DNA of 19,770 nucleotides from a virus (lineage: Duplodnaviria > Heunggongvirae > Uroviricota > Caudoviricetes): IMG/VR virus record IMGVR_UViG_2695420763_000003; one strand, written 5' to 3'. The notes below the pieces were generated by a model. That model was not told the origin of the DNA. It did no database searches and saw only the letters and a list, made by a program, of their open reading frames with translations. Below are positions 2,313 to 18,561 of the stretch, in pieces. Each line of letters begins with the position of its first letter. The first letter of the stretch is position 1. The position numbers and the translations under genes were made by a program.

Positions 2313-2507
2313 ATGTCAACGAAGAACAGAACCCGCAGAACAACAACCCGCAACATCCGCTTTCCTAACCAAATGATTGAACAAATTAACATCGCTCTTG
2401 AGCAAAAAGGGTCTGGGAATTTCTCAGCCTGGGTCATTGAAGCCTGCCGTCGGAGACTAACGTCAGAAAAGAGAGCATATACATCAATCCAAAGTGATGA
2501 TGGATGA
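2313..2507 (+). CDS. Small putative ribbon-helix-helix (Arc/CopG-like) DNA-binding protein, 64 aa
   Basis: Track ORF MSTKNRTRRTTTRNIRFPNQMIEQINIALEQKGSGNFSAWVIEACRRRL... has a basic N-terminus, then a beta-strand-like NIRFP followed by two short helices, the pattern of RHH proteins. An AT-rich palindrome-containing region (2150-2300) lies upstream. The fold is inferred from sequence pattern only. Confidence 0.45.
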   Translation: MSTKNRTRRTTTRNIRFPNQMIEQINIALEQKGSGNFSAWVIEACRRRLTSEKRAYTSIQSDDG

Positions 2508-2694
2508 ACATCCCGGTTTCTTCCACCATCGCACCGGAAAAGCGACTATGAGGGTAACCCTGCGTCTGTCAGCACAGTAAAACCCGGTGTGCATCGTTTT
2601 TGATTATTCCCGCACACTCACGCAGAAGGAATTCCCCGTCGGGCTACGGTCATGGTTAATGCGGGAATACGGCGACGATACAGCGCATAATGTG

Positions 2695-3243
2695 TCAGGC
2701 TTGAATACCTTTATCGAATCCCGGTAATAAAAACTGTCTCTGTCTCTCCAGACGTTCCAGCTTTGCAAGCAATTGAGGTTTTTTCGTTCTCCCCCAGCGA
2801 TTGAGCAGACGGCCTGGCATGCTGGCGACATCCTTCTCTTTCATGTACTCCAGCATTACGGCGTTACGTTCTGCTTCATAACTTTCGCTGTACTTACGGA
2901 GTTCTGCTGACATCCAGTTAAACGCATTGATATAGGCTTCTTTAACAGCATCGGCTTTTGCCCCGTTAAATCCCATAACCAGCATAACGAAGCCACTAAA
3001 GTCCATGCGGTAGTAAATCTGTTTCTTGTCAAAAATACCTAAGTCATTGATTTTCTCGACGGCCCAAAAATGGGTTGTCGAGAATTCCTCAGAACATCTC
3101 AAACATTTAATAGCCCTAATCACATGCTGATGGCGTTTACCAAATGCCCTGGCAATCTGGAAGGTGTCAGTTACCGGTTGACCTTCTGCTGCGGTAACTA
3201 ACTGGCGAAAGTCGAAGTCATGATTCGCAATTAATTCATTCAT
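2695..3243 (-). CDS. Rha-family phage regulatory protein (antirepressor-like)
   Basis: MNELIANHDFDFRQLVTAAEGQPVTDTFQIARAFGKRHQHVIRAIK... carries the GQPVTDS..IA..FGKRH..V.R.I pattern of the Phage_pRha domain. The track ORF extends to a TTG at 3327; I prefer the ATG at 3243. Confidence 0.65.
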   Translation of the reverse strand: MNELIANHDFDFRQLVTAAEGQPVTDTFQIARAFGKRHQHVIRAIKCLRCSEEFSTTHFWAVEKINDLGIFDKKQIYYRMDFSGFVMLVMGFNGAKADAVKEAYINAFNWMSAELRKYSESYEAERNAVMLEYMKEKDVASMPGRLLNRWGRTKKPQLLAKLERLERQRQFLLPGFDKGIQA

Positions 3244-5045: not shown

Positions 5046-6896
5046 TTATGCTGCCGGTGCATTTATCTCCAGCATCAGACTTTCTATCTCAACGCCATAC
5101 GCTGCATTTTTTGTAACATCCGTCAGCGTCAGCGCATTCAGTCCCAGTGTCAGACTGTCTTTTATAACCTGGAATGCCGGGCCAGCCACTCCATTCAGTT
5201 TCGGAGTAACCGTGGCACTGCCGGCGGTGAACACCAGCTCCAGCGTCTGCCAGTCGTTACCGTAATCGCCGAACTCCCCCAGCTTCGTGTTTCCGGCTTT
5301 CCTGTGATGCATCAGATTCACTCTGCCGTCAGTGGTCTGAGTGAAGTACGACATCAGGAACGGATTACCGGTACCCGTCATCGCCACACCATCAGGAACG
5401 GGAGCATCCGTATACAGATAAATCCCCAGCCCGAACTGATTGTTGGTCAGTGCGCCTGACAGGCGGAACTTACAGGTCAGTCTGCCGCCCTGTGTCAGCA
5501 GGGTAATTGCGTCATCCACCGGATGCGTCAGGGACCAGGTTTTATTGCTCTGCTTGGTGATCTTAAATACACCATCTGACAACTGAATTCCGCCATCCTT
5601 AATGCTCCAGCCCTGCGCAGCAGCCTCTCCGGCTGCCGGCAGCAGGGAGATTGTGCGAACGGACGTATCTGCAGACGGACCCGATGGCGTGTTGCCGCCG
5701 GGCGAGGGTTTGATTTCCGGTGCCTTACCACTGATGAAGGCTGAGGTGCGCCCGGCTGCGTTCAGAATAGCGGTTGCCAGACGATCCGGAATAATGCTCC
5801 TGCGCGCCCATGAACTGAAATGTGTCGGGCGGTTTGATGATACCTGGTTTCCATTCGTTCTCGATGCCGCACCGTAATATCCTGATGCCGGAATATCCGG
5901 ATCTTCTGCCGGCGCGTTAGTGGCGGTATTGACGCCGTTACCGTCTGTCATGAAGGGCACAAAATAAACGCCCTCACTCTCCCTGTTTTTGTACGCCCCG
6001 TAAATGGTGTTGTACTGGGTGCCGTAGGTATTTTTCCAGTAATACGTCGTGTCACCACAAATCCACGGCACATCTGCAGCACTGCCACCATGGCACTGCG
6101 CGTTAAACACGGAGAGGTCAGCACGAAACTGTGTCAGCATGGCTGTAAACAGCGCAGGTTGCTGTGCGTGGGTGGCGGCGCTCATGTCAAACTCTCCCTG
6201 CATCCAGCACACCGCCAGCAACACATTTTTCGGGTTCTTCTGTAATGCAGCTTTGGTGCGCGCAATCAGGTCCTGATATAACGGTTTACCCACACCCCAG
6301 CGCGCCGAATCCTGGCTGGCCCCCGTGTCCGCACTGAATGTCCCCTCCGCGCCCTGGGTAAATGCCGAACCACCACGACAGCATGGTACCAGCAGGATCC
6401 CCGCGTTATTCGGGATATACGGGAGCAGTTTTTTGGCAATATGTAAACCCTGGCCGACACAGCCGTACTGCCCTTTGCTCAGGTCTGCCTTCGGATGATT
6501 CAGCGTACTCATATCCTGCACATCATGCAGGCAGTGGTCGGCCGGAATAATATCGTTATATCTGCAGGCAGCCCCACCCGGCGTCACTGTACTGCGGCGC
6601 GCCAGCTGTTTAATGCGCGGATCCGGAGCATCGTATGAATCCGGCAGCGGAAGCCCTTCACCGTAAGCCATGGCATTGGATTGCCCGGCCAGTACGATGA
6701 CGTAGTACCAATCCGGCTCAGTTGCACCACTGACCACCACATCACCTTCTGCTGTAATCGCCTGCATCAGGGTATAAGGGGTTATGGCCACCGGACTACC
6801 AAACGGCTGCCAGCCCTCTTTCAGTTTGTGTGTCAGCTTTTCCGCAAGGTCTGACGGCGACGCCGCCCTGACAACATCATAATGTTTAAATGTCAT
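5046..6896 (-). CDS. nanS-p: Prophage sialate O-acetylesterase, NanS-p type (DUF1737 N-domain + SGNH/SASA esterase + C-terminal domain)
   Basis: 616-aa ORF. The N-terminus MTFKHYDVVRAASPSDLAEKLTHKLKEGWQPFGSPV is DUF1737-like. VIVLAGQSNAMAYGEG carries the GQSN motif of SGNH/SASA esterases. The C-terminal ~200 aa are Gly/Thr-rich and beta-rich. Position between Q and S matches nanS-p genes of Stx and related prophages. Confidence 0.8.
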   Translation of the reverse strand: MTFKHYDVVRAASPSDLAEKLTHKLKEGWQPFGSPVAITPYTLMQAITAEGDVVVSGATEPDWYYVIVLAGQSNAMAYGEGLPLPDSYDAPDPRIKQLARRSTVTPGGAACRYNDIIPADHCLHDVQDMSTLNHPKADLSKGQYGCVGQGLHIAKKLLPYIPNNAGILLVPCCRGGSAFTQGAEGTFSADTGASQDSARWGVGKPLYQDLIARTKAALQKNPKNVLLAVCWMQGEFDMSAATHAQQPALFTAMLTQFRADLSVFNAQCHGGSAADVPWICGDTTYYWKNTYGTQYNTIYGAYKNRESEGVYFVPFMTDGNGVNTATNAPAEDPDIPASGYYGAASRTNGNQVSSNRPTHFSSWARRSIIPDRLATAILNAAGRTSAFISGKAPEIKPSPGGNTPSGPSADTSVRTISLLPAAGEAAAQGWSIKDGGIQLSDGVFKITKQSNKTWSLTHPVDDAITLLTQGGRLTCKFRLSGALTNNQFGLGIYLYTDAPVPDGVAMTGTGNPFLMSYFTQTTDGRVNLMHHRKAGNTKLGEFGDYGNDWQTLELVFTAGSATVTPKLNGVAGPAFQVIKDSLTLGLNALTLTDVTKNAAYGVEIESLMLEINAPAA

Positions 6897-6984: not shown

Positions 6985-7079
6985 AAGAAATGAAGAAGGC
7001 CACGCAGTTGCGCAGCCTGATAAACCCTGGTTAAAATCCACACGATAACAACACAACAATATCAGTATCTCATGCTATT

Positions 7080-7105
7080 GCCCGAACCCATTCGGGCATT
7101 TTTTA
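7080..7105 (+). terminator. Plus-strand intrinsic terminator
   Basis: GCCCGAA-CCCA-TTCGGGC (7-bp stem) followed by ATTTTTT. Confidence 0.45.
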
Positions 7106-7110
7106 CCCAT

Positions 7111-7141
7111 AAAAAATGCCCCTCCGGAGAGGGGCATTTTT
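7111..7141. terminator. Bidirectional intrinsic terminator
   Basis: AAAAAA-TGCCCCTC-CGGA-GAGGGGCA-TTTTT: 8-bp GC-rich stem with an A-run on one side and a T-run on the other. Confidence 0.55.
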
Positions 7142-7338
7142 GCATGCACATTCTTTTTCTTGCATGGTGCCGGGTGCCTCCCGGTGAATTCAGTATCAGC
7201 ACCTGAATCCGCGATTATCACATATACCTACTTGCTGATTGCCCCTCCGCACAGGGGGATTCACCATGCAGTAGTATTTTTAATAAACAGCAAATAAAAA
7301 AATCAAGCATTATGCAGGCTGTTTCTTTTTATCACCGG

Positions 7339-7470
7339 CTACAGCAATACCACAATGCCGCAGACCAGCACCCCATCCGCCAGCACCGACATGATTCTGC
7401 TGGTGAAATCCACCATCACCACCAGAAACAGCAGGAGTGCAGCCACAGCCAGGCGCAGTTTTACCGTCAC
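7339..7470 (-). CDS. Putative 43-aa hydrophobic small protein, start overlapping the stop of the TerB-like frame
   Basis: GTG at 7470..7468 overlaps TGA at 7469..7467 (GTGA). Translation is VTVKLRLAVAALLLFLVVMVDFTSRIMSVLADGVLVCGIVVLL, a single predicted TM helix. Below the ORF-track length cutoff. Expression is unproven. Confidence 0.3.
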   Translation of the reverse strand: MTVKLRLAVAALLLFLVVMVDFTSRIMSVLADGVLVCGIVVLL

Positions 7471-7960
7471 AGGTGATTCTCCAGACGAAGACCCAGAACA
7501 CCGGCAATCTCTTCCAGCACCTTGCGCTCTTCCGGCTCAATTTCGCCGTCTGCCTCCGCAATGGCCACCGCCACATCCAGCACATCTTCCGCTTCACGCG
7601 TATCGTGTTTCACATCCTCGATCTCACGTAACGCCGCACGACGACCAATTTTAAAGTTCGTATCCAGCTGACCGATAATGGTTGCGCTAATCGCATTAAT
7701 TTCTGACGTAAACGCGGACAGCGCAGGCTGATTACGCAGTACCTGTTCGATCTTCGCTTTCTAGGAAGCCTCACATTCACCATCTGCACAGGCCACCAGG
7801 TAGGCAGCATTAATAACCGCCTGTGCCAGATCGCGTTTCTCAAACTTTCCTTTTTCCGGTTAACGTGACACACCAATAACTCTTGTCGAAAAAGCCAGCA
7901 AGCTGAAAGACCGGTATTCACAACCACCAGCGCGTTTACTGTACTGGCGTGATTTCAGTC
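7467..7960 (-). pseudogene. Degraded TerB-family (tellurite-resistance-like) gene
   Basis: Minus-strand segments translate to ...AGFFDK..., ...PEKGKFEKRDLAQAVINAAYLVACADGECEAS, then in-frame TAG (7761-7763), then KAKIEQVLRNQPALSAFTSEINAISATIIGQLDTNFKIGRRAALREIEDVKHDTREAEDVLDVAVAIAEADGEIEPEERKVLEEIAGVLGLRLENHL*. These segments show TerB-like ADG and EEK motifs. They are broken by an in-frame TAA (7860-7862), the TAG, and at least one frameshift near the N-terminus. No Met-initiated intact ORF remains. Confidence 0.5.
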
Positions 7961-7990
7961 ATAAAAAAACCCGCCTGGCGACGGGTGTAA
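7961..7990 (-). terminator. tR'-like intrinsic terminator of the short pR' leader RNA
   Basis: Minus-strand RNA ACCCG-UCGCCAGG-CGGGU followed by UUUUUUUAU, about 40-60 nt downstream of the predicted pR' start. Confidence 0.6.
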
Positions 7991-8033
7991 AAAATCTTCT
8001 AACGTCAGGCATAAAACGCCCATCGTTAGGGCA

Positions 8034-8061
8034 AATTTACCACAGATTCGGGAAAAATCAA
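8034..8061 (-). promoter_or_regulatory. Late promoter pR' with adjacent qut-like region
   Basis: Minus-strand TTGATT (-35, 8061..8056), 16-nt spacer, TAAATT (-10, 8039..8034). The segment GGTAAATTTGCCCTAACGATGGG closely matches the lambda pR' -10/start region GGTAAATTTGACTCAACGATGGG as recalled. It lies directly downstream of Q. Confidence 0.65.
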
Positions 8062-8066
8062 CAAAG

Positions 8067-8888
8067 CTATCTGGTCACCTTTTTCAGTTGTTGTTCTGCC
8101 CATGCTTCTTCAATATCAAACTGCACCACCAGCGTATCGTAAAAACGTTTAACTGTTTTTTTCCATGTATCAAGAGATATGGCATCGGTTACATTACATA
8201 TGGCATTAAATGCCTCCGTTGAAGGTAATCTTTCATAGCCACGACCACCACAACGCTGGCAGTCTCTGATAACAGGCATACCACGTTTTACCGACTCTTC
8301 ACGATGAATGGCAACACCGCGCCCACGACAATCTTTACAGGCAGTGGATACCTCTCCCTTCCCTCCACACTCCGGACAGGCAACTTTTACCACCTCCCTG
8401 ACTTTTTTCCATTCCTCCCAGTAAGACGGATACACGCCTTTTGTGCACTTTGCCCACACTGGCGGCTTACCATCCGGATACTGGATCTTGTTTGTAAAAA
8501 CCTCGCTTTCAATAAATTTTTTTCCGTGACAACAGGGGCACTGTTTTTTGCTCGCCGCGCTACGGGCATAATCTTCAAACGCATACGAAGCCATAATACG
8601 CATCACTGCCGGTTTTATTTCTGCCGGGAGTTTTCTTAACGCCGCCACGCGATCACACCGACTGAGTGCATATTCTGTCAGCAATTCTGTTGCCCGCTCT
8701 CTGTCATTCATACTAATGCCCATTTTCCCAAGGAACGCAGAAAACCCCATCTCAGCCCAATTCTGTGTCATGCCCTGCGCGGCCATCACATCAGTGATAC
8801 TCAGCGTATCTTTCGACGTTGAGGCCGATGCATCAGTCAGGCCGGGGGATTTTGGGGAGTAGTATTTCGGTAAATCTTCCAGTTTCAT
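8067..8888 (-). CDS. Q: Late-gene antiterminator Q (Qin quuQ-like, 273 aa)
   Basis: Sits between rusA and pR'. The N-terminus MKLEDLPKYYSPKSP... resembles Qin-type Q as recalled. Contains four CxxCxGxG-like motifs (CPCCHGKK, CPECGGKG, CKDCRGRG, CQRCGGRG). Start overlaps the rusA stop (ATGA). Confidence 0.8.
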   Translation of the reverse strand: MKLEDLPKYYSPKSPGLTDASASTSKDTLSITDVMAAQGMTQNWAEMGFSAFLGKMGISMNDRERATELLTEYALSRCDRVAALRKLPAEIKPAVMRIMASYAFEDYARSAASKKQCPCCHGKKFIESEVFTNKIQYPDGKPPVWAKCTKGVYPSYWEEWKKVREVVKVACPECGGKGEVSTACKDCRGRGVAIHREESVKRGMPVIRDCQRCGGRGYERLPSTEAFNAICNVTDAISLDTWKKTVKRFYDTLVVQFDIEEAWAEQQLKKVTR

Positions 8889-9259
8889 TTTTTGACCTGC
8901 CCTTCAAGCATTATGGGGTAAATTTTCACCCCCAGACGTCCACCAGATACTGGCTGAGCACGAACGATATTGATTTCATCAAACTGCTCATCGTCCATTA
9001 GCAACCCCGCATGCGTCAGCGCATCCAGCGGCGCTTTCAGAATATTGTCCAGGTCACGGCGGCGCTTATCCGGTGGCTCGGCAATAATCTTTATCGCCAG
9101 CCTTCCGGACAGGCTTAATTTCAGCCGCTGCTGGCGAACAATAAGCGCCACAGCCCGGCGATAACGCTCACCGGCTTTTGATACAAAATATGTGCTGCCA
9201 CGACGTCGCCAGTAGGTGTTCACCGTCGGCGGGTAAAGCAAAACAAACTCTATACGCAT
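8885..9259 (-). CDS. rusA: Holliday-junction resolvase RusA
   Basis: 124-aa ORF with RusA family motifs (...PPDKRRRDLDNILKAPLDALTHAGLLMDDEQ...). AGAGG RBS upstream. Confidence 0.9.
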   Translation of the reverse strand: MRIEFVLLYPPTVNTYWRRRGSTYFVSKAGERYRRAVALIVRQQRLKLSLSGRLAIKIIAEPPDKRRRDLDNILKAPLDALTHAGLLMDDEQFDEINIVRAQPVSGGRLGVKIYPIMLEGQVKK

Positions 9260-10765: not shown

Positions 10766-10921
10766 TTACTCCTCAGGTTCGTAAGCTGTGAAGACAGCGA
10801 CCTCCGTCTGGCCGGTTCGGATTCGTACCTCGCAGAGGTCTTTCCTCGTTACCAGTGCCGTCACTATGACGGTTAAACAGATGACGATCAGGGCGATTAA
10901 CATCGCCTTTTGCTGCTTCAT
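10766..10921 (-). CDS. hokD: Type I toxin Hok (HokD/RelF-like, 51 aa)
   Basis: MKQQKAMLIALIVICLTVIVTALVTRKDLCEVRIRTGQTEVAVFTAYEPEE with AAGGAG RBS. The track ORF 10766..10978 adds an in-frame 19-codon upstream extension (mok-like). The upstream leader carries a 9-bp inverted repeat (11043-11051 / 11070-11078). Confidence 0.9.
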   Translation of the reverse strand: MKQQKAMLIALIVICLTVIVTALVTRKDLCEVRIRTGQTEVAVFTAYEPEE

Positions 10922-11166
10922 AGCCTGCTTCTCCTTGCCTTTCGGCGCGTAAGAGGCTAACCTACATGTGTCTAGCATGAAATTGGCCTCAGATTAATGT
11001 TAGGCGTCTTGCAGGACGCGTAATGTTAACTGGGGCTTTTCTCTGTCTGCCTTACGGTGGCATGCCCGAGGCAGACAGCCTCAAGCGCCCGCAGCAATTC
11101 TACTTAACTCTCGCTTTACCGCAAACCGTTTTTACCCGATATGGGAATTCCCATATCGTAATGAAT

Positions 11167-18507: not shown

Positions 18508-18561
18508 TTTTCTGGTGACTTTTGGCGGTATCAGTTCTACTCCGTGACTGCTCTGCCGCCC
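18508..18561 (+). ncRNA. dicF: DicF small RNA (ftsZ-targeting sRNA processed from the dicB operon transcript)
   Basis: TTTCTGGTGACTTTTGGCGGTATCAGTTCTACTCCGTGACTGCTCTGCCGCCC followed by TTTTT matches the 53-nt K-12 DicF sequence as I recall it, with about 3 substitutions. It ends in a GGCGG...GCCGCC terminator hairpin. Coordinates are from my own line indexing and were not re-verified to the base. Confidence 0.75.

Follow-up and report, generated by a model that had tools for sequence, protein, structure and literature searches.

The genes tciA and tciB of phage P1 have been named since 2004. They encode a small protein pair whose first member belongs to the TerB family, of which two acidic DGx5E motifs are the hallmark. 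Both genes are annotated in the P1 record (AF234172): TciA, a TerB-domain protein of ~142 aa, is followed directly by TciB, a 54-aa protein that matches DUF3927 over its full length (106 bits), and the stop codon of the first gene overlaps the start codon of the second. Here we compare this module with a locus at positions 7339-7960 of a 19,770-nt stretch of Caudoviricetes DNA (IMG/VR record IMGVR_UViG_2695420763_000003; hereafter, the window), which very probably is a non-functional relic of the same phage accessory ('moron') module, tciA-tciB, first named in P1. The TerB-family protein of the intact relatives is 41-51% identical to P1 TciA (tblastn against phage genomes). Flanking tRNA genes, lytic-programme expression and non-essentiality are further likenesses to P1, whereas the operons differ: the P1 module lies in the C1-controlled ban operon together with tciC, and the window module in a Q-dependent late operon, with the small RNA (sRNA) element STnc100 in place of tciC. 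The window copy also differs from P1 in being inactivated, by a 5' deletion and a nonsense codon in tciA (E46*) and a nonsense codon in tciB (W44*).

The lambdoid phage JLK-2012 (NC_049942) is annotated with Q, tRNAs, tciA, tciB, yjhS, S, R and Rz, in that order. JLK-2012 and prophages of Escherichia coli CUVET21-H2 and UPEC-245U resemble the window in slot, neighbours and DNA sequence (90-95% identity), but they encode intact proteins of 143 aa and 54-57 aa and have kept the methyltransferase and tRNA genes that are deleted in the window. In Shiga toxin (Stx) phages, the stx1/stx2 slot likewise lies downstream of Q and pR'/tR' (and of tRNAs, in intact relatives) and upstream of nanS-p, and STnc100-like DNA downstream of the slot is common to both; the cargo there is stxAB, whereas here it is tciAB and no toxin is encoded. 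That Stx phages share the STnc100-like DNA but not tciAB fits a single slot that can take either stx or tciAB as its cargo. The TerB proteins of the terZABCDE(F) clusters for tellurite resistance, phage inhibition and colicin resistance (structure 2JXU) belong to the same domain family over their full length, with duplicated acidic DGx5E motifs and a reported membrane partner, TerC. They differ from the locus studied here in that no other ter genes are present here, and in place of the multi-pass TerC the partner in the membrane would be a hairpin of 54 aa.

Results

The locus is the lambdoid version of P1 tciA-tciB. The initial annotation had presented a TerB-like gene paired with a tiny membrane protein in this position as a cargo that matched no described system; the pair is in fact already named and catalogued, in P1 and JLK-2012, in PHROGs and by the Prokaryotic Genome Annotation Pipeline (PGAP), which labels such loci TerB family and 'DUF3927 family protein' in hundreds of E. 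coli genomes, and hence it is not an undescribed cargo. An intact ortholog of the TerB-family protein aligned with phrog_632 ('tellurite resistance') over 143/143 positions (E = 8.8e-69), and a 55-aa allele of the small protein from O157 matched phrog_1470 (E = 1.5e-29), whose label is 'TciB-like inhibition of cell division or resistance to colicin'. Both families belong to the moron/host-takeover category of PHROGs.

Assignment of the larger reading frame to the TerB family, as first proposed, stood up to profile search and to comparison with annotated genes. The 97 codons that follow the in-frame TAG (7470-7760) matched PF05099 with 32.3 bits (E = 1.3e-7; cut-off 24.4), an intact ortholog scored 60.2 bits (E = 2.9e-16) on the same profile, and window positions 7848 to 7322 share 90-97% DNA identity with annotated TerB-family genes. 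Among the 100%-identical E. coli loci retrieved by megablast of window 7250-8070, locus L001 carries, over window 7467-7829, a PGAP call for a 'tellurite resistance TerB family protein' pseudogene with an internal stop, beside a DUF3927 call. The intact ortholog pair that was to be sought in related prophages exists, for example in E. coli CUVET21-H2 (locus L003): other prophages encode a 143-aa TerB protein and a 54-57-aa DUF3927 protein with a 4-nt gene overlap, after tRNA-Ile/Arg/Arg and before an esterase gene. The intact lambdoid late operon reads Q, pR'/tR', 65-aa open reading frame (ORF), DNA methyltransferase, tRNA-Ile/Arg/Arg, tciA, tciB, STnc100, AgvB, nanS-p and lysis genes. Set against the P1 module, the intact ortholog has a TciA-type protein of ~142 aa, while the window has codons ~18-143 with a stop at codon 46; the DUF3927 ORF lies directly downstream with an overlapping start, a layout shared by 6-7 unrelated phages; and neither frame of the window is intact. 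No ORF like P1 TciC follows tciB in the window, where STnc100 begins 44 nt downstream, and TciC seems to be specific to P1.

The tciA remnant occupies 7467..7848 on the minus strand, like all protein-coding genes of the slot, and comprises codons ~18-143 and the TGA stop, without a start codon or ribosome-binding site (RBS) of its own. The in-frame TAG at 7761..7763, seen in the initial annotation, replaces the GAG of Glu46 (Glu46*), the invariant residue that closes the first DGx5E motif. In 25 intact TciA sequences the motifs D39 G40...E46 and D117 G118...E124 are invariant or nearly so; the window copy keeps the second motif intact, and the first ends in the amber codon. No TciA can be expected from the window locus, because the RBS, the start codon and ~17 codons are lost and a stop stands at an invariant residue. 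Intact tciA, by sequence comparison, has been under purifying selection in the past, since the remnant differs from the intact L003 gene at 17 synonymous and 3 non-synonymous codons, and TciA length (141-144 aa) is maintained down to ~50% identity with E46, D117, G118 and E124 invariant.

The decay map first drawn for this gene, two in-frame stops and at least one frameshift, gives way to one nonsense codon and a 5' deletion. There is no frameshift, because the homologous part (7467-7848) aligns with intact genes with 0 indels. Pairwise BLAST against L003 gave two blocks, one of window 7848..7322, which is tciA-tciB, and one of window 8079..7846, which corresponds to DNA just downstream of Q and is 93% identical to L003 5687..5454 and to positions 2734..2501 of a further relative (L009). 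The two blocks meet at a deletion junction at 7846..7848 (minus strand), also evident from the junction sequences, where 1925 bp are missing relative to intact relatives. The deleted DNA equals L003 3529-5453. It holds the 65-aa ORF, an N6/N4 DNA methyltransferase and tRNA-Ile/Arg/Arg as well as 50 nt from the 5' end of tciA, so that the loss starts at the RBS of the ORF and reaches about codon 17 of tciA. At each breakpoint there is a short A-rich stretch of microhomology: GGGAAAAAG, on the side of the 65-aa ORF, falls at its RBS, and TTAAAAAG, on the tciA side, at codons 16-18. ARAGORN found no tRNA in the window, consistent with the 1925-bp deletion.

Because the deletion fused leader DNA to tciA at 7846-7848, where tciA homology ends, the TAA at 7860-7862 is not a lesion of the TerB gene. 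It sits in leader DNA (7849..7968, minus strand) that is unrelated to TerB and that normally precedes the 65-aa ORF downstream of Q. A seven-residue resemblance to TerB upstream of 7848 (LAGFFDK versus MLGIFKK) was considered and set aside as chance, since this DNA corresponds, at 93% identity, to the non-coding leader that lies close to Q in the relatives. A 105-codon ORF (7610-7927, minus strand) crosses the junction in a frame other than that of tciA and matches no family in this context; it is most likely a chance ORF made by the fusion.

The small downstream ORF (tciB; 7339..7470, minus strand) has 43 codons and a GTG start and matched the DUF3927 profile PF13064 at positions 2-41 of 53 (E = 6.8e-12). 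The GTGA overlap proposed in the initial annotation is exact: the tciA stop lies at 7469..7467 and the tciB GTG at 7470..7468, with a GGAG 8 nt upstream of the GTG. A chance ORF in decayed DNA would have been absent or non-conserved in intact orthologs; that reading of the small ORF fails because the intact orthologs conserve it.

What had been overlooked is that the 43-aa ORF is itself truncated, its intact counterparts being 54-57 aa long. Alignment with intact genes and of TciB proteins placed a premature amber codon at 7339..7341 (minus strand; TGG to TAG, W44*), which shortens a 55-aa protein to 43 aa, at the cost of the WPxxK tail and the last part of the second hydrophobic segment. Set beside the O157 and O145 alleles of 55 aa, 7303..7338 (minus strand) proved to be the now-untranslated remainder, the last 11 codons and the original TGA (PVIKRNSLHNA*). 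The motif WP(V/I)xK is kept in the P1, O157, SP-058 and Pollock sequences and is absent from the window ORF, whose DUF3927 match is not full-length. The hydropathy profile of TciB contains two hydrophobic segments split by DF(T/S)xx, with basic residues at both ends, and the positive-inside rule suggests a membrane hairpin with both termini inside (N-in/C-in). A crippled 43-aa TciB, lacking the conserved tail and translational coupling, might be made from late readthrough transcripts by way of its own GGAG.

The initial annotation had singled out the decay as notable against an otherwise intact late region, but the same lesions are common. We counted them in 5426 complete E. coli genomes with 41-mers centred on each lesion, for which megablast seeds only if the lesion is present; all counts are inflated by heavy sampling of E. 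coli that produces Shiga toxin (STEC; O157, O26, O145 and related lineages) and carry no phylogenetic correction. The deletion junction was found at 638 places in 502 genomes. The E46* (TAG) allele of tciA was present at 962 places in 577 genomes, against 164 places in 159 genomes for GAG with the same flanks, and the W44* allele of tciB at 112 places in 96 genomes, against 2752 places in 650 genomes for TGG. Among tciA copies, at least 35% thus have the TAG of the window and 23% its deletion.

The lesions also occur apart from one another. Loci L019 and L020 have the same deletion with Glu46 (GAG) intact, the O145 strain RM13514 (L002) has the TAG with a full 5' end, and L018 (~2470-2500), whose 5' end is likewise complete, is frameshifted by -1 within the A-run of codons 16-18. 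With E46*, the 5' deletion and the L018 A-run frameshift, the independent tciA lesions that circulate in E. coli prophages number at least three; decay of tciA is thus routine, and its lesions are reshuffled among prophages. An order with the TAG preceding the deletion, drawn from RM13514, was dropped: L019 and L020 carry the deletion with GAG, and recombination shuffles the two lesions, so their order cannot be read from these loci. In 5'-deleted or frameshifted copies (L018, L019, L020), PGAP and other gene callers place the start of a 'TerB family protein' of 120 aa (P0042, with 284 member sequences) at a CTG (Leu24); these are probably mis-called pseudogenes.

Such recurrence could be read as non-neutral decay, in which redundant or mismatched tciA copies are harmful in poly-lysogenic STEC and are repeatedly knocked out while tciB remains functional alone. 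The three or more independent lesions, the high share of tciA copies with the TAG beside an intact tciB TGG at 2752 places, and the presence of a median of 4 and up to 8 tciA copies per carrier genome would all fit this explanation, which we nevertheless consider very unlikely. Clonal oversampling (O157, O26, O145 and related) together with recombination between resident prophages inflates the counts, tciB (165 nt) is a smaller mutational target than tciA (432 nt) and is itself lesioned (W44*, 112 places), and intact TciA proteins are abundant, P0001, P0003 and P0007 each having 354-848 member sequences. Every point in favour of selection can be accounted for by neutral decay in cryptic prophages.

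By co-location, tciA and tciB are a strict pair. A probe for the tciA core hit 2723 places in 805 genomes and one for tciB 2721 places in 804 genomes. An excess of tciB over tciA, suggested by the allele-specific 41-mers, was rejected on these allele-independent counts. Outside E. coli, we searched for TciB with a small hidden Markov model (HMM) built from known TciBs. In both P1 variants, JLK-2012, the N4-like phages SP-058 and Pollock, and Klebsiella phage 5 LV-2017, the TerB gene is followed immediately by a TciB ORF; the match to gp7 of the Erwinia jumbo phage ChrisDB was weaker (E = 2.6e-7). The phage groups with tciAB are thus P1-like, lambdoid, N4-like, Klebsiella temperate and Erwinia jumbo, often with the module beside tRNA genes. 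In Klebsiella phage 5 LV-2017 (L016, KY271399) the TciB/DUF3927 ORF, at ~1626-1790 between a late antiterminator and an endolysin gene, is unannotated (hmmsearch E = 1.9e-25).

The tRNA neighbours of tciAB vary. They are Asn/Thr upstream and Ile downstream in P1, Asn/Thr/Gly in JLK-2012, Ile/Arg/Arg in lambdoid prophages, and Trp/Cys upstream and Tyr/Gln/Ile downstream in ChrisDB (L011). The module seems to travel with, or insert beside, tRNA clusters.

Placement of the locus in the late-operon slot that holds stx or other morons agrees with its neighbours. The minus-strand order is RusA (8885-9259, upstream of Q), Q, a hairpin, the decayed cargo, STnc100/AgvB, a NanS-p-like esterase and the lysis genes. 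Q, a late antiterminator of 273 aa (8067..8888, minus strand; PF03589 Antiterm, E = 4.7e-50), forms the upstream border, and its counterpart in L001 is named 'antitermination protein' by PGAP. A pR'-like TTGATT-N16-TGgTAAATT was found by eye at ~8061-8034 (minus strand), and a consensus scan reported a terminator-like GC hairpin with a T-run at 7969..7986 (minus strand); by position, these would be pR' and tR'. The downstream border is the 616-aa esterase (5046..6896, minus strand), with DUF1737, SASA and DUF6645 domains (Pfam), which PGAP calls a 'SASA family carbohydrate esterase'. Past it come holin, endolysin, Rz/Rz1 and Nu1 genes and a terminase large-subunit frame that is open for 466 codons to the window end.

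Ahead of the cargo the slot therefore has Q and a terminator, and past it convergent sRNAs and nanS-p as the conserved ORF; Tree et al. 2014 (PMC4104026) described this order of Q, pR', moron coding sequence, convergent sRNAs and conserved ORF. TerB (PF05099) also figures, in a 2026 preprint, among the genes common near prophage Pas sRNAs.

The STnc100-family element (7105..7295, minus strand; Rfam RF02076, 146 bits, above the gathering score) starts 44 nt past tciB. It is followed by the gene for AgvB (anti-GcvB; 7043..7104, plus strand; RF02702, 96.5 bits), which is convergent with the late operon and has its own terminator (7079-7098, plus strand, by consensus scan). The two stand back to back between tciB and nanS-p, which fits the 'convergent sRNAs in the moron site' of enterohaemorrhagic E. 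coli prophages. Elsewhere in the window, a sok antitoxin RNA (Rfam, 115 bits; 10766-11090, minus strand) overlaps a 70-aa ORF (10766-10978) in the early region; with hokD annotated in a related locus (L005), 10766-11090 is presumably a hok/sok-type type I toxin-antitoxin locus. A DicF sRNA (Rfam, 71.5 bits) lies at 18510-18561 on the plus strand, and the P1 record has a 'dicF-like region' within the ban operon that carries tciABC.

With these RNAs close by, the 43-aa ORF might be thought a type I toxin-like or holin/antiholin-like peptide under the control of adjacent sRNAs, the TerB frame being incidental. It is small and hydrophobic, lies in the late operon beside lysis genes and no more than 250 nt from the STnc100 and AgvB genes, and the hok/sok locus indicates that such modules occur in this prophage. 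The evidence from the pair makes this highly improbable. No Rfam sRNA overlaps 7339-7470 as a type I antitoxin would, STnc100 being on the same strand as tciB and AgvB 235 nt away, and TciB is always translationally coupled to TciA, also in phages without these sRNAs and away from lysis genes (in the ban operon of P1 and in the early region of N4-like phages). The genes co-occur 1:1 in E. coli, and knockdown of tciB in P1 had no effect on plaque formation.

Discussion

The small ORF and the TerB-family remnant thus belong together as a decayed tciA-tciB pair, and its relatives suggest how an intact pair may work. Intact TciA matched the K. pneumoniae TerB structure 2JXU over residues 13-137 (E = 4e-8). 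The AlphaFold model of the intact protein P0003 is all-alpha, with seven helices and a basic N-terminal helix of lower confidence (predicted local distance difference test, pLDDT, 85.5). In a Foldseek search of the PDB, the top three hits were chains of 2H5N, which we take to have a TerB-like fold (probability 1.00, template modelling score 0.55-0.64, at a weak E-value of 0.027), and 2JXU was not returned. TerB membership accordingly rests mainly on sequence profiles, given the modest Foldseek E-values and the missing 2JXU hit.

On the analogy of the TerB-TerC complex, a model for the intact module can be outlined. TciA would be a soluble TerB-type domain, all-alpha and bearing the two acidic DGx5E motifs, and the TciB hairpin would tether it at the inner face of the cytoplasmic membrane. 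An interaction of TerB with TerC at the membrane is reported in PMC11003894, citing Turkovicova 2016. The pair would be expressed in lytic growth, as its contexts indicate (the C1-controlled ban operon of P1, the N4-like early region and the lambdoid late operon), and may adjust envelope or ion physiology, or exclude colicins or competing phages, while being dispensable for plaque formation. We put this model of membrane-tethered envelope physiology or exclusion forward tentatively, as the likeliest for the intact module, and regard it as doubtful.

Published work on the P1 family and its relatives touches the module at several points. In P1, CRISPR interference found tciA, tciB and tciC to be non-essential (PMC10695390), and TciA peptides were present in virion preparations (PMC9024508). 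About half of one P1-like subgroup lacks the operon (PMC9603915), and, according to the genome note on Pollock, what TciA does in a lytic phage is unknown (PMC4319500).

Several observations weigh against our reading of the locus as a relic of a conserved late-expressed pair with the function just outlined. Both pR' and Q-dependent expression are assigned by position, and a minus-strand scan for consensus sigma-70 promoters returned none for pR' or a moron promoter, either in the window or in the intact L003. The 43-aa TciB remnant may still be made and be doing something. The TciB HMM found no partner in Pseudomonas phages PMBT3 and AF or in Vibrio phage D491; because the TerB homologs of these phages stand without TciB, TciA is not strictly dependent on it. 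The TerB-DUF3927 fusions found (only P0004 and P0064) are frameshift read-throughs and not natural fusions. PADLOC defence models gave no match, TciB having no hit and TciA a partial one of 14.9 bits, and the literature contains no experiment from which a function could be assigned to either protein, the name being given 'by homology' only.

That the pair is a genuine tellurite-resistance determinant is barely credible: the label 'tellurite resistance TerB' of Pfam, PGAP and PHROGs and the match to 2JXU would favour it, but terC, terD and terE are absent from the window and from the ~15 related loci examined, the smallest resistance-conferring ter construct cited in PMC11003894 is terBCDEF, and the window copy is a pseudogene. 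As the pair stands apart from other ter genes in every locus examined, the label is nominal.

A broader proposal can also be made. TciA-TciB would be a conserved membrane-associated two-protein module in at least five unrelated Enterobacterales phage groups, its repeated inactivation in poly-lysogenic STEC would reflect selection (copy incompatibility or a cost to the lysogen), and the intact module would have a new lytic-phase host-takeover or exclusion function. We think this quite unlikely.

As an annotated pseudogene pair of a named phage family, identical in many E. coli genomes, the window locus itself matters little. The corrected decay map, a 1.9-kb deletion and two amber codons, means that the prophage has also lost the methyltransferase and tRNA genes that are usual between Q and the cargo. 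For the family, it draws attention to a common module that occupies the same slot as stx, and the evidence for the pair is now quantitative, with ~2720 co-located copies in ~805 of 5426 genomes and synteny across unrelated phages.

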